IMG/VR virus record: IMGVR_UViG_2541047826_000010
Length of the DNA stretch: 34,194 nucleotides
Source of the DNA: a virus
Lineage: Duplodnaviria > Heunggongvirae > Uroviricota > Caudoviricetes
Strand: one strand, 5' to 3'
Part shown: in pieces, positions 1,065 to 9,843 of the stretch
Layout: each line of letters starts with the position of its first letter
Numbering within the stretch: the stretch's first letter is position 1
Translations under genes and position numbers: made by a program
Notes under the pieces: generated by a model
Told to the model about the DNA's origin: nothing
The model's database searches: none
What the model saw: only the letters and a program-made list of their open reading frames with translations

Positions 1065-1454
1065 TTACTCTTTTTTCTCCGTATCTGCATCGGGTTCATC
1101 AGCAAATAGCTTGCCCTGCATCCGATCCAGTTCTTCTTTTCTTACCCGCTTAACCACGCTGTAGACCCACTGAAGCGAAACACCAAATTTGCGGGCCAGT
1201 TCGTGGTGGTTGCGTCCGTTAAACTCCCTGAAGATTTCCCGGTCGCGCTGACTGACCTTCCATACCATGCCCATCGGGAAATAAACGTTTTGCCCGCCCC
1301 AGACCTGCATCATTCGGTTCGCGACGGCCTGACCAATCTGGTCGGCAACTTCGGGCTCAATATCAATAATCTCGCGAACGGTCTCAGAGGTATGCTGTGC
1401 CAGTTCCACCAGGAGTTCCGGCCCCTTACTTCGAAACTGATTCAGGTCGCTCAT
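1065..1454 (-). CDS. mor: Mor/C-family transcriptional activator (Mu middle-operon-regulator type)
   Basis: 129 aa; GGQNVYFPMG and REIFREFNGRNHHELARKFGVSLQWVYSVVKR match the Mor/C family signature (Mu Mor: GGQVYIP, NDFNGRN, C-terminal HTH). SD GGGAG 7 nt upstream of the ATG. Confidence 0.85.
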   Translation of the reverse strand: MSDLNQFRSKGPELLVELAQHTSETVREIIDIEPEVADQIGQAVANRMMQVWGGQNVYFPMGMVWKVSQRDREIFREFNGRNHHELARKFGVSLQWVYSVVKRVRKEELDRMQGKLFADEPDADTEKKE

Positions 1455-1875
1455 GTTTGACTCCCGCAGCTCTGCGCTGCCACTTCTTCAGTTTCTCAAT
1501 AACACTGCTTGCCTGTTCAGTACTGAGCCAGCGCAGGGCGCTGATGCCCGTTTCCCGCTTGATCCACCTCGCTAATGCATTTTCTGAACGGTCACGAACA
1601 ATGCCGGCAGCAGCCATTTCAAGCCATAGCGCACGAATTTTCCTGGACTGCGGATGGTTATCCAGCGGTAAACCGGAGCTGGCTTTTCTGGCTGGTTTAA
1701 CGCGAAAGCCTTTCTTTTTCATGGATTCCAGCACGCAGTTTAGTTGTGTGGTATCCATTCCTTTGGTTGAGGCTTTACCGGTCAGCCCCTGTAACATCTG
1801 GCGGTAGGTGTCTTCATCCATACCCAGTTCATTACGGGCAATATGGATAAGCTGTATCAGGCGTTTTTTCTGCAT
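1426..1875 (-). CDS. gemA: GemA-like protein (Mu gp16 family)
   Basis: 149 aa; N-terminal LIQLIHIARNELGMDEDTYRQML pattern typical of GemA/DUF1018; lies immediately upstream of mor as in Mu; overlaps the mor start. Confidence 0.75.
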   Translation of the reverse strand: MQKKRLIQLIHIARNELGMDEDTYRQMLQGLTGKASTKGMDTTQLNCVLESMKKKGFRVKPARKASSGLPLDNHPQSRKIRALWLEMAAAGIVRDRSENALARWIKRETGISALRWLSTEQASSVIEKLKKWQRRAAGVKHERPESVSK

Positions 1876-1876
1876 A

Positions 1877-2083
1877 TCATCTCCTTTTTTTCAGTCTGTC
1901 GGCAACAATGTCGGTTGCAGCTGGCAGGGTGACTGGCCAGAACAACATGACGGCGGTCATGTACAGGATGTAATGCGCGGTGTCGTAGTGCCTGCCATAG
2001 CCCAGGGAACGATGAAGTCTTGCGCTGCATGATCCTGCGTACATATACCAGAAAAGAAAACAGACAATGGTTTCAGTAGTCAT
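1877..2083 (-). CDS. small hydrophobic protein, unknown function
   Basis: Internal ATG at 2083 preceded by GGAGG; 68 aa, two hydrophobic segments; the upstream ORF stop lies a few nt inside it. The ORF-track 120-aa version is an extension. Confidence 0.5.
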   Translation of the reverse strand: MTTETIVCFLFWYMYAGSCSARLHRSLGYGRHYDTAHYILYMTAVMLFWPVTLPAATDIVADRLKKRR

Positions 2084-2303
2084 TCTGAATACCTCCCCAT
2101 TCGATATGAATATTACGGGCAGCAATGACAGGGTCGTTATTCCACCATGCACCTGACATGTATTTTTCAACCTGTTCGCGTCCGGCAATAACACCAATTG
2201 TGATCCCCGGCCTGACGTTCTTAAAAAAGGCGCGGGCAAAAAGGTATCTGGCAGATATTCGGCAGGCTTTTAATTTCCGGCTGTTACCTGATAGCGTAAT
2301 CAT
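2073..2303 (-). CDS. hypothetical protein
   Basis: 76-aa ORF; its ATG overlaps the stop of the upstream gene (TCAT on plus strand = ATGA), i.e. translationally coupled in the early operon. Confidence 0.45.
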   Translation of the reverse strand: MITLSGNSRKLKACRISARYLFARAFFKNVRPGITIGVIAGREQVEKYMSGAWWNNDPVIAARNIHIEWGGIQNDY

Positions 2304-2983
2304 CTGGCCTCCAGTTTCTGTTGTTCCTGCCCACTGACCGGGCGGTGCAGTCTGACGTTCTGCCCTTCACGAAACCCCGCATAGCGCGAGGCGTCGCCAT
2401 TGCGGCTTCTTCCCGGTTTACGCGCCCTGGTGGTTTGCGTTTGCGGGTATTTATGTTCCAGCCACTGTTGCATCAGTTCACGCTCATCATCGGTCAGGGC
2501 AAAGGACTGTATTTCACTGATAACGGCCAGTACCCAGCCTTCAGCAAACTGGTTTCCACGGCTGGTACGGGTGGCGTTTTTTATTCTTTTGTTCTGTGCG
2601 CTGATATACTGCTGACGCGCCTTTTTCAGTTGGCGGACCAGCACTTCCCAGGTGTATGCAGCCAGTGCCGCTCGTTCCCGGTTACCGTAGAACCCCACAG
2701 ACGGATGCGTGCCGGGGTGAATGATGGAGTTAACACCAAATGCCTCGCGGATGATGTTCATCAGGCCCAGCATGTAGCGCGGTGGACGGAGACTGCCTGT
2801 CGGCCAGTAATGACTGATGGTTTCATCAATATCACTCATAGCAATGTCGGAATGTGTGATGCCGTGAACATCCATCAGTTTACGGGCTCGGCGCAGTGCC
2901 AGAGCGGCCTCGTGCGGGTTGCCGGATGCGGCCAGCGCCAGCAACTTTTTCAGTTTCTCAATGTGTTTATTCTGGTCTGTCAT
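2300..2983 (-). CDS. DUF2786-like early protein, unknown function
   Basis: N-terminal KHIEKLKKLLALAASGNPHEAALALRRARKLM motif resembles the DUF2786 signature (from memory); start moved to ATG 2983, which overlaps the upstream stop (ATGA) and has SD GGAGA. Confidence 0.55.
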   Translation of the reverse strand: MTDQNKHIEKLKKLLALAASGNPHEAALALRRARKLMDVHGITHSDIAMSDIDETISHYWPTGSLRPPRYMLGLMNIIREAFGVNSIIHPGTHPSVGFYGNRERAALAAYTWEVLVRQLKKARQQYISAQNKRIKNATRTSRGNQFAEGWVLAVISEIQSFALTDDERELMQQWLEHKYPQTQTTRARKPGRSRNGDASRYAGFREGQNVRLHRPVSGQEQQKLEAR

Positions 2984-3195
2984 TGTTCTGTATCTCCGGT
3001 ATTTTTCTGCCGTTTCCATGCCCGGACAGCGTCGGACAGCTCTTTCAGGCTGTATGCTGCTTTAAGCTTTTCCCATAACCACTGTGTTGTTATGTGCATC
3101 AGCAGGGCAGCCAGGGCTGCCCCCGCACTGAGGCATGTCGCCAGGCCAGTAAGAATCAGTGTCCATGCGGTGATTTCCCTGAGTATGTCAGCCAT
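2980..3195 (-). CDS. small membrane protein
   Basis: 71 aa, one clear TM segment (WTLILTGLATCLSAGAALAALLM); SD GGGAGG 8 nt upstream. Confidence 0.5.
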   Translation of the reverse strand: MADILREITAWTLILTGLATCLSAGAALAALLMHITTQWLWEKLKAAYSLKELSDAVRAWKRQKNTGDTEQ

Positions 3196-3209
3196 TGAAT
3201 GCCTCCCGG

Positions 3210-8771: not shown

Positions 8772-8781
8772 TGATTACTCC

Positions 8782-9090
8782 TTACAAACGACTACCTGAA
8801 ATAACTCGTTGGTTGATTTCGTTAATACGATCCTGTGCACGCGCCATCTCGTGACTGTGAGCCATGGCGATCTGTAGTAACTGGATTCCCGGTGCGAAAC
8901 GTCCGTTCTCTAATTTCATGGCCAGTCCCTCTTCAATAAGGGTATTAAGTGCTCGATTGATATTCGCCGGGGACTCCCCCAGGGCTGATGCCAGTTCACC
9001 GTTAGAAACACCGTTCAGAGCATGACCGCGTAGAGCTTTGAGTACACGTAGGATGCGGGTCCCAGAACTGGAAATATTTACTTTACTCAT
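8782..9090 (-). CDS. winged-HTH DNA-binding protein (IclR/MarR-like N-terminal domain), putative regulator
   Basis: GTRILRVLKAL...GVSNGELASALGESPANINRALNTLIEEGLA is a typical wHTH; start uncertain (ATG 9090 chosen; the ORF track extends to 9153, overlapping ner). Confidence 0.5.
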   Translation of the reverse strand: MSKVNISSSGTRILRVLKALRGHALNGVSNGELASALGESPANINRALNTLIEEGLAMKLENGRFAPGIQLLQIAMAHSHEMARAQDRINEINQRVISGSRL

Positions 9091-9142
9091 GTCACATTTC
9101 CATTTTTGCAATATGTGATAACCTGTTGCATATGTGGAAAAT

Positions 9143-9331
9143 TTATGCCGCATTTGACGTGGGTTTTAATCCCAGTTTTACGGCAATTTCATGGGCTTTG
9201 CCGTAACGAGCTTTGGTCTGTCCATTGAGAACACGATAGACCTCATTGCGGCTGTAGCCGTGTTCTTCGGCCCAGCGGGTAAACGTGATACCACGCTGAC
9301 GGAAGAGATTTTTAACTTGTTCGGAAGTCAT
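9143..9331 (-). CDS. ner: Ner-like DNA-binding protein (HTH), first gene of the early operon
   Basis: 62 aa; RGITFTRWAEEHGYSRNEVYRVLNG...AHEIAVKLGLKP resembles the Ner/Nlp HTH arrangement; SD AAGGAG; divergent from the repressor, as Mu ner is. Confidence 0.65.
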   Translation of the reverse strand: MTSEQVKNLFRQRGITFTRWAEEHGYSRNEVYRVLNGQTKARYGKAHEIAVKLGLKPTSNAA

Positions 9332-9378
9332 TGTTGTCTCCTTTGTTGATGCAATGATGTTTGTTTTATATGTGATAG

Positions 9379-9408
9379 ATTATGAGAACTATTGTTCTCA
9401 TTGTCAAT
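9379..9408 (-). promoter_or_regulatory. early promoter with embedded operator palindrome
   Basis: On the minus strand TTGACA (plus 9403-9408) and CATAAT (plus 9379-9384) separated by 18 bp; the spacer carries the 20-bp near-palindrome ATGAGAAC-TATT-GTTCTCAT (9382-9401). Confidence 0.5.
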
Positions 9409-9417
9409 GAGGTTTAT

Positions 9418-9843
9418 GTGAATTTTGATTCTCTTTGCGCGTCGCGGTTCAAAGCTGAGCGTTCGCGGTTATCACTCAAGCAGGCTGAAGTAGCAGCCCT
9501 TTGTGGCGTTTCAAGAGAAATGTGGGGGAAATATGAACGAGGGGTTGCTGTTCCCGGAGGTGAGTTACTTGCAGCCTTTGCAAGAATTGGGGCCAATGTA
9601 CAGTTCATTCTTACCGGGGAGTCATCAGGTATAACTTTATCACGTGATGAAATGGAGTTACTGCAGCACTACCGGCAGGCACCATTACAGGTCAAAGGTT
9701 CAGTTTTGTCGGCCTTGACTACTGGCTCCTCCAGAGAACGGGCGGAACAGGTTATTCATGGAGATGTTCTGGGGAATGTTATCAAAGGTAACGTAACCAT
9801 AGGAACAGGTGGAATAATGAACAAAAATACCAAGAGAAGATGA
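9418..9843 (+). CDS. XRE-family HTH repressor-like protein (candidate prophage repressor)
   Basis: LSLKQAEVAALCGVSREMWGKYERG is a classic XRE HTH; divergent from the early operon; GTG 9418 with SD GAGG preferred over ATG 9382, which sits inside the operator palindrome. Confidence 0.7.
   Translation: MNFDSLCASRFKAERSRLSLKQAEVAALCGVSREMWGKYERGVAVPGGELLAAFARIGANVQFILTGESSGITLSRDEMELLQHYRQAPLQVKGSVLSALTTGSSRERAEQVIHGDVLGNVIKGNVTIGTGGIMNKNTKRR

Follow-up and report, generated by a model that had tools for sequence, protein, structure and literature searches.

The mixture of gene types in IMG/VR virus record IMGVR_UViG_2541047826_000010, a 34,194-nucleotide stretch of Caudoviricetes DNA that we refer to in its full length as the window, raises the question of what kind of transposable phage it carries. 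An original prediction for positions 1065 to 9843 described a mosaic with a Mu-like early operon, a transposase unlike MuA, a Mu-like head, and a P2-like baseplate, and suggested a resemblance to the group of phages that includes BcepMu. Such a mosaic could be a Mu-type prophage that only appears rearranged, a recent recombinant, a decayed remnant, or a phage of an established kind. We conclude with high confidence that bases 903-34194 are a BcepMu-like temperate transposable myovirus prophage that combines a Mu-like lifestyle with a Tn552-related transposase. The window very probably holds the left ~33.3 kb of a 37- to 38-kb phage inserted in the 3' end of Escherichia coli otsB. The element is of a well-described and common kind, and it is near-identical to phage and prophage sequences that have already been deposited.

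The transposase and its partner ATPase

A canonical Mu-type (Muvirus) prophage, rearranged in appearance only, would encode MuA and MuB. The minus-strand gene at 6084..7853 does encode a DDE transposase, of 589 amino acids (aa) as originally stated, but the protein did not lead back to MuA. Its only Pfam match is rve; DDE_2, HTH_Tnp_Mu_1, HTH_Tnp_Mu_2, and Mu-transpos_C were absent even at E ≤ 5, whereas MuA matches all four. BLASTP detected no similarity to MuA (E 0.45), and a scan of NCBIfam returned IS481 and IS21 as its only matches, both sub-threshold. With BcepMu gp09, the transposase shares 68% identity over its full length (581 aa aligned). Sequence searches of the PDB with the transposase and the neighboring ATPase gave only marginal matches, to retroviral integrases and ABC ATPases. 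The transposase family is represented by 1075 clusters at 50% identity (E ≤ 1e-3), nearly all of whose representatives are 570 to 620 aa long; many members come from Enterobacterales and Burkholderia, and the range extends far beyond these taxa.

In 89 to 90 diverse homologs, residues D160, D254, and E290 are invariant and form a D...D-35-E triad. When a profile of 89 family members was compared with Tn552 p480 by hhalign, the two aligned with a probability of 98.9% (E 3.4e-17) over 338 columns that span an N-terminal helix-turn-helix (HTH), the RNase H-like catalytic core, and the beta-barrel that follows it. The same profile reached a probability of 0.13% (E 0.44) against MuA. The p480 sequence was taken from plasmid pMW2, in which the gene is frameshifted, and its two fragments were joined by hand. 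Pairwise similarity to p480 by BLASTP is weak (24% identity over 182 aa, E 0.002, with a range of E 0.002-0.17; 26%, E 5e-7, for BcepMu gp09), as expected for a "distant member" of the Tn552 family.

An AlphaFold2 model of the transposase, built from the family alignment, reached a pLDDT of 90.7. Foldseek comparison of this model with the PDB ranked TnsB of the type V-K CRISPR-associated transposon (ShCAST) first (E 1e-17, ~470-540 aligned columns), followed by IS21 IstA, Tn7 TnsB, MuA (2e-10), and retroviral integrases. The profile match to p480, the failed match to MuA, and the ranking of TnsB among solved structures together indicate that the enzyme is a DDE transposase of the Tn552/TnsB branch, which shares the general domain plan of MuA but does not belong to the MuA family. 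The suggestion of a Tn552-like transposase lineage was therefore borne out. A BcepMu-like transposase has likewise been described as unrelated to MuA and as a distant member of the Tn552-IS1604 family (PMC2771037), and the BcepMu record (NC_005882) labels gp09 "Tn552/IS1604 rve transposase" and gp08 "exe/eha". Differences from Tn552 are nevertheless clear. In addition to the pairwise identity of ~24%, the phage transposase has ~110 extra C-terminal residues, and the element is a virus rather than a resistance transposon, with no resolvase-type cointegrate resolution module in the window.

The transposase gene is followed directly, and on its own strand, by the gene for an AAA+ ATPase with an N-terminal HTH (4907..6073; AAA_22, 3.6e-20; "ExeA family"). 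The mechanically called open reading frame (ORF) begins with a GTG at 6112, but the true start is probably Met14, giving a protein of 388 aa encoded at 4907-6073; the 388-aa form is annotated in RefSeq and in Escherichia phage PhiKM, and similarity to BcepMu gp08 begins at Met14. Identity to gp08 is 59% over 404 aa. In some close homologs of the ATPase, the N-terminal HTH_3 domain is recognizable. We found no Phage-MuB_C domain in Pfam and no similarity to MuB by BLASTP. Thus, the protein searches proposed with the original prediction recovered gp09 and gp08 of BcepMu and, by BLASTP, neither MuA nor MuB. We presume that the ATPase is the target-DNA partner of the transposase, analogous to MuB, on the basis of gene adjacency, the AAA_22 domain that it shares with MuB, and the label "DNA transposition protein" of PHROG 296. 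The annotation "ExeA family protein" most likely denotes a transposition ATPase here, not a secretion factor.

Gene order compared with BcepMu and Mu

Every ORF in the window was compared with the genomes of BcepMu (NC_005882) and Mu (NC_000929) by tblastn. Collinear, same-strand homologs in BcepMu, from gp01 to gp51, were found for 33 of the 48 phage ORFs at 31-76% aa identity. Nine of the 48 match Mu, including mor (30%), gemA (36%), gam (62%), the terminase gene TerL (49%), portal (27%), F (48%), G (29%), and J (27%). The transposase is not of the MuA type and the synteny is not that of canonical Mu, and the 33 collinear ORFs together with gp09 and gp08 confirm the proposed membership in the BcepMu-like group.

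[quoted passage not shown] The window follows the same plan. At the left end, gemA and mor close a bottom-strand early cluster, and the repressor gene is followed on the top strand by lysis, head, and tail genes. Homologs of the gp16-family HTH protein, the gp17 repressor, gp12, gp10, gp09, and gp08 are present. So are lysis genes for a holin, SLT, and Rz, and a P2-type tail accompanies the Mu-type head. The left end is TG, as in the TG...CA ends of BcepMu, with paired GNGATAWWT repeats in the same register.

Nearer relatives share this gene order. Nucleotide identity to the window is 96-99% for PhiKM (PQ738613), which GenBank classifies as Bcepmuvirus; 86-88% for Klebsiella phage KP12 (OM835952) and Escherichia phage Phi06_2974 B (KM389306); and 99-100% for prophages of strains C 237-04, GN04275, and NCTC9022. 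Four complete prophages of 37.4-38.0 kb, with an early region 99-100% identical to that of the window, served as a set of siblings. The transposase gene is carried by 637 of the 5426 complete E. coli genomes (~12%), in at most three copies per genome. Bcepmuvirus prophages of E. coli and an induced temperate gut phage of Bcepmuvirus have been mentioned previously (10.1101/2022.05.07.487787; PMC12629997).

On the minus strand, from 9331 down to 1065, the early operon encodes in order a 62-aa HTH protein, a winged-HTH protein, a DUF3102 protein, the transposase, the ATPase, an 89-aa ORF, Gam, six further ORFs, GemA, and Mor. It reads toward the phage end at 903, and mor stops 162 bp short of that end. 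Because the phage ends there, mor is the terminal gene, as had been claimed. The mor gene (1065..1454; Pfam Mor, 1.3e-43), which encodes a late transcription activator of the mor/C family, has a product 54% identical to BcepMu gp01 and 30% identical to Mu Mor (tblastn). The product of gemA (gp16 family; 1426..1875; Pfam GemA, 8e-41) is 44% identical to BcepMu gp02 and 36% identical to Mu GemA.

Two extra genes between the first HTH gene and the transposase gene had also been noted, and both were found. One encodes a 304-aa DUF3102 protein (7857..8771, minus strand; Pfam DUF3102, 2e-6; phrog_1748) that is 41% identical to BcepMu gp10. The other encodes a winged-HTH regulator (8782..9153, minus strand; HTH_IclR, 1.5e-6; phrog_1368) that is 33% identical to gp12 and whose RefSeq form has 102 aa and ends at 9090. 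The first early gene (9143..9331, minus strand) encodes the 62-aa HTH protein, which is Cro/Ner-like by position and matches TIGR04111 (BcepMu_gp16 family) with 94.4 bits against a cutoff of 34. We rejected its identification as Ner: its HTH_35 score of 14.6 bits lies under the cutoff of 25, and Mu Ner scores 95.8 bits. From the Mu-like early gene set of the original prediction, the transposase, ATPase, gam, gemA, and mor genes were present where they had been placed, whereas the gene called ner belongs to the BcepMu gp16 family.

Like Mu, the element is a transposable temperate myovirus, with a TG end, many insertion sites, Mor, GemA, and Gam, and an AAA_22 ATPase gene beside that for the transposase; its terminase, portal, F, and G are of the Mu type, and the homologs of Mu mor, gemA, gam, TerL, portal, F, and G are 27-62% identical at the aa level. 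However, the transposase falls outside the MuA sequence family by Pfam, BLASTP, and hhalign, the ATPase lacks the C-terminal domain of MuB, and Ner is absent, the small HTH protein being of another family. Relative to the near end, the early operon is inverted, with mor terminal, whereas in Mu the repressor lies at the left end and the operon reads inward. Two extra genes precede the transposase gene, and the tail is closer to that of P2. The target duplication of Mu is 5 bp, and that of the siblings is 6 bp. At the nucleotide level, 2.5% of the window aligns with Mu. We therefore give hardly any credence to a canonical Mu-type prophage with MuA and MuB.

Alternatively, a Mu-like early region, a Mu-like head, and a P2 tail might have been joined recently in E. 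coli, so that the mosaic itself would be new. The modules do differ in their nearest relatives among classical coliphages, the GC content is uneven along the element, and gam, at 62% identity to the Mu gene, has no BcepMu counterpart. Against such a recent recombinant, the arrangement is collinear with that of the Burkholderia phage BcepMu across 33 genes, which argues that it is old and defines the group. The tail proteins are nearer to those of BcepMu (46-76% identity) than to those of P2 (25-39%), members of the transposase family occur in Enterobacterales, in Burkholderia, and well outside both, and the architecture is already in the literature (PMC2771037). Only local exchanges, of gam, the semi-essential region, and the accessory block, are supported. 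A newly assembled mosaic is thus very improbable. The combination of Mu-type head and P2-type tail was correctly recognized in the original prediction, but its implied novelty did not hold, because this arrangement is the defining published architecture of the BcepMu-like group. The architecture was reportedly set out by Summer et al. in 2004 (J Mol Biol 340:49) and by Toussaint and Van Gijsegem in 2018 (Res Microbiol 169:495), according to later papers that cite this work (PMC6776037, PMC5977238, PMC8705779).

The BcepMu-like phage in the window does depart from BcepMu itself at several places. The stretch that separates the ATPase gene from gemA contains gam, a DUF2786 gene, and small ORFs in the window, whereas in BcepMu it contains genes for a single-stranded DNA-binding protein, HU, DUF3164, and a pyrophosphatase. 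Different accessory genes follow the repressor gene, and at the right end the E. coli siblings carry a Gin-like invertase gene and an invertible tail-fiber segment where BcepMu carries an acyltransferase gene. These differences are ordinary module exchanges among temperate phages. The gam gene (4077..4607, minus strand; Pfam Phage_Mu_Gam, 1e-40) encodes a Mu-type host-nuclease inhibitor and DNA-end protection protein, and its identity to Mu Gam is far above that of any other window protein to a Mu protein. tblastn found no gam homolog in BcepMu. The high identity to Mu Gam and the lack of gam in BcepMu suggest that the enterobacterial BcepMu-like lineage has exchanged a module with true Mu-like phages.

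Phage ends and insertion sites

The first 902 bases of the window are E. coli DNA, consisting of the 5' part of otsA (ATG at 858) and the 3' end of otsB on the minus strand, with 100% identity to otsB and otsA. This flank is found, 100% identical, in 5418 of the 5426 complete E. coli genomes. The phage begins at base 903, where its left end reads 5'-TGATTAGACTTGAG. We placed the end there because alignments with PhiKM and with prophages at many different E. coli loci (yehK, rimK, dcuC, dmsC, hycE, lplA, and others) start at or within a few bases of 903; the same end sequence thus adjoins different host genes in other genomes. No match spanning the otsB-prophage junction of the window was found among the complete E. 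coli genomes of the collection. The junction, within the 3' end of otsB, precedes the start codon of otsA by 44 bp. In the lysogen, OtsB is probably truncated and otsA is probably separated from its operon promoter, and trehalose synthesis may therefore be affected.

Alignment with sibling and BcepMu ends defines a left phage end (903..945, plus strand) that comprises a terminal 5'-TGA and two direct repeats, TGAGATAAAT (913-922) and TGAGATATTT (936-945), with a spacing of 23 bp. In an ungapped alignment of the window left end, an E. coli sibling right end, and both BcepMu ends, T1, G2, and A3 are invariant, and two copies of G-N-GATA-W-W-T occupy positions 12-20 and 35-43, with G12-G14ATA-T20 and G35-G37ATA-T43 invariant. 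The degenerate pattern GNGATAWWT occurs at two places only in the 34-kb window, both of them at the left end. The paired repeats are likely candidates for transposase binding sites. The ends of Tn552 carry directly repeated 23-bp transposase binding motifs, and the phage end repeats are spaced 23 bp apart.

All four sibling prophages share the left end of the window copy, and their right end reads …GCATTTATCGCGCGGCGCATCA. Each of the three cleanly inserted siblings is flanked by 6-bp direct repeats, namely CCATCG in dmsC, GGAACT in a lambdoid exo gene, and GCTGAT in hycE. By inference from these duplications, CGAAGA (897..902) is the predicted left copy of the target-site duplication in the window. 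In the full genome of the window copy, the right end is predicted to read …GCGCATCA, followed by CGAAGA. The right-end CA and the 6-bp duplications were observed in the siblings; those of the window copy lie beyond the window. As to the ends and duplication that the original prediction proposed to identify, the left end was thus fixed at 903, and the right end and the duplications were read in siblings only. A 6-bp repeat has been described as the footprint of B3/Tn552-family transposases (PMC8705779), and the TG...CA termini are those reported for BcepMu (PMC2628397).

The prophage of strain C 237-04 has no target duplication (flanks TACACG and AAAAAT; record positions 1561 and 38958), though it is otherwise identical. 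It joins a truncated glycoside hydrolase gene beside gadC to dgcM/smrA, loci that we take to be far apart on the K-12 map. The missing duplication and the joining of distant loci suggest a transposition-associated deletion, inversion, or rearrangement beside this prophage. In AH21B060 (record 1-208 and 38169-38633), the sibling copy sits in the exo gene of a resident lambdoid prophage, so that one prophage inactivates a gene of another.

The sibling that lacks a duplication at a rearranged locus would fit a defective or cryptic remnant, or a domesticated element that has lost both transposition and particle formation; the tape-measure gene is split in some siblings, and the right end of the window copy lies beyond the window. 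Yet every window gene with a BcepMu or PhiKM counterpart is uninterrupted and of the expected length, including that for the 983-aa tape measure, the terminal repeats and TG end are intact, and PhiKM, to which the window is 96-99% identical, is an isolated phage. We consider it unlikely that the prophage is a remnant of this kind.

Control region, variable modules, and proposed cycle

The repressor gene (9382..9843, plus strand; HTH_31, HTH_3) diverges from the early operon and encodes a cI/Cro-type HTH protein whose residues 34-153 are 39% identical to BcepMu gp17. A candidate early promoter (9375..9408, minus strand) combines a -35 element TTGACA (9407-9402), a 17-nucleotide spacer, and a -10 element CATAAT (9384-9379), which match the consensus at 11 of 12 positions. 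The site at 9379-9407 is the best sigma-70-like site in 880-12200 and points leftward. A perfect palindrome, TGAGAAC-tatt-GTTCTCA (9383-9400), lies within the promoter spacer and overlaps the annotated repressor ATG (9382), which makes it a plausible candidate operator of this promoter. Because gp17 aligns from residue 34 only and the palindrome overlaps the ATG, the real repressor start may lie further downstream of 9382. Upstream of the holin start by 45-70 bp, a TAA-N-TTAAAA-like motif is found both in the window (12070-12095) and in BcepMu (11484-11505). As a Mor site or Mor-dependent late promoter, this motif is too weak to call.

The repressor gene is followed by a variable accessory block (9840..12012) with a low GC content of 43-48%, compared with 55-60% elsewhere. 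It encodes a 328-aa single-pass membrane protein, a 196-aa ORF, and a minus-strand 158-aa P-loop ORF. The membrane protein has a Flk-like N-terminal region, and its start overlaps the repressor stop. Searches of the block gave no Pfam assignment and no PADLOC match to a defense system. In PhiKM and AH21B060, the block is replaced by a Dam methylase gene and other ORFs, and this exchange makes it a candidate hot spot for superinfection exclusion or defense.

A second variable part, the semi-essential early region (1877..3979, minus strand), contains six mostly small and little-characterized ORFs for which tblastn found no BcepMu or Mu counterpart. By Pfam and PHROG, they include a DUF2786/DUF7168 protein (2300-3019) and a fragment of a MazG-like nucleoside triphosphate pyrophosphohydrolase (3210-3506), both on the minus strand. 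The 89-aa ORF between the ATPase gene and gam (4635..4904, minus strand; phrog_2041) is a hypothetical protein in RefSeq siblings.

The late genes lie on the plus strand. The lysis cassette (12110..14504) encodes a holin, an SLT transglycosylase, and an Rz-like lipoprotein (Holin_2-3, 1.5e-41; SLT, 1.8e-14) and includes two small conserved genes; its products are 50-61% identical to BcepMu gp21, gp22, gp25, and gp26. The Mu-type packaging and head module that follows (14504..22958) encodes the gp27 small terminase subunit TerS, TerL, a Mu portal, Mu F, G, a protease/scaffold, the major head protein, gp36, and gp37, with Pfam matches to Phage_Mu_Gp27, Portal_Mu, Phage_Mu_F, Phage_Mu_Gp36, and Gp37. 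Identity to BcepMu gp27-37 is 44-67%, and to Mu it reaches 49% for TerL and 48% for F; for the virion morphogenesis protein (Pfam Phage_tail_S), tblastn gave 29% identity to Mu G.

The P2-type contractile tail and baseplate module (22955..33871; Pfam, tblastn) encodes the FI sheath, FII tube, E chaperone, T tape measure, U, X, D, V, W, J, and I. Pfam matches cover the sheath, FII tube, E-type chaperone, GpU, tail X, GPD, base V, GPW (W/gp25), and Baseplate_J, and gpI was recognized through tblastn matches to P2 and BcepMu. Eight tail proteins (FI, FII, U, D, V, W, J, and I) match P2 at 25-39% (tblastn), and the module is 31-76% identical to BcepMu gp38-51, in keeping with the reported likeness of the BcepMu tail cassette to P2 in sequence and order (PMC2771037). 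The tape-measure gene encodes 983 aa in the window (26022-28973) and 1070 aa in C 237-04 (record 26680-29892), and it is annotated as two pseudogene pieces in GN04275 and NCTC9022 (sibling records L007 25645-28857 and L009 11454-14666). At the right ends of siblings, a gene for a Gin/Cin-like serine recombinase lies beside oppositely oriented genes for tail fibers and tail-fiber assembly (C 237-04 record 37110-38880; L007 35729-38013). This arrangement would correspond to an invertible host-range segment like the G segment of Mu, and BcepMu is reported to be without such a segment (PMC2771037).

Several points weigh against the assignment of the window to a BcepMu-like transposable phage or narrow it. 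By blastn, 33% of the bases of the window align with BcepMu at 68% identity, which gives ~22% nucleotide similarity overall. In the genus practice of the ICTV, members share ~70% or more nucleotide identity over the genome length, and the product of identity and coverage found here, ~22%, lies below that level. Strict membership of the genus of BcepMu is therefore doubtful, and the two are probably not of the same genus, although membership in the BcepMu-like group is clear. The shallow profile (Neff 1.8) of the 388-aa, ExeA-like ATPase with its N-terminal HTH aligned weakly with MuB (hhalign E 0.014), over 201 collinear columns that include the HTH and Walker A/B, and weakly with Tn552 p271 (hhalign probability 53%, E 1.3e-4, 96 columns). 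The AlphaFold2 model of the ATPase, made from a shallow alignment of sequences with 64-94% identity, has a disordered core; with a pLDDT of 63, it was not used in the fold search. Promoter-like sites were not enriched over shuffled sequences, and the site at 9379-9407 is a consensus match only. Further, the window stops within the tail module, and the right end, the tail-fiber genes, and the second duplication copy lie beyond it. Transposition and inducibility of this copy are putative, as is its intactness.

The low similarity to BcepMu allows the tentative and rather unlikely idea that the enterobacterial lineage forms a separate genus-level branch of the BcepMu-like phages. Its marks would be the ~22% nucleotide similarity to BcepMu, parts from the Mu lineage (Gam and the Gin-type segment of the siblings), and a swappable low-GC block that might encode an exclusion or anti-phage function.

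These features suggest how a BcepMu-like phage of this kind may operate. In the lysogen, the HTH repressor encoded on the plus strand (9382-9843) would shut off the divergent, leftward early promoter predicted near 9379-9407, through the putative operator. Upon induction, leftward early transcription would yield the gp16-family HTH protein, the winged-HTH protein, the DUF3102 protein, the transposase with its D160/D254/E290 triad, the ATPase, Gam, the accessory proteins, GemA, and, lastly, Mor. The transposase would bind the paired GNGATAWWT repeats, 23 bp apart, beside the TG...CA termini of both ends, nick the 3' ends, and join them to target DNA with a 6-bp stagger, while the ATPase would deliver the target DNA, by analogy with MuB, TniB, and TnsC. 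Transposition is presumed to be replicative, so that replication of the strand-transfer product would copy the genome to new, essentially random sites. Mor would then activate the plus-strand late genes in trans from putative Mor-dependent promoters, leading to lysis, Mu-type headful packaging and head formation, and assembly of a P2-type contractile tail.

The element itself adds little new biology. It documents BcepMu-type transposable phages as common residents of E. coli, whose insertions disrupt ordinary genes, otsBA here and dmsC, hycE, and another prophage in the siblings. For annotation, the value of the analysis is that the transposase is related to Tn552 and not to MuA and that the small HTH protein belongs to the gp16 family and is not Ner. 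With their conserved end repeats and a confident model of the transposase, these phages could also serve as the source of a second, non-Mu phage-derived system for transposition in vitro.

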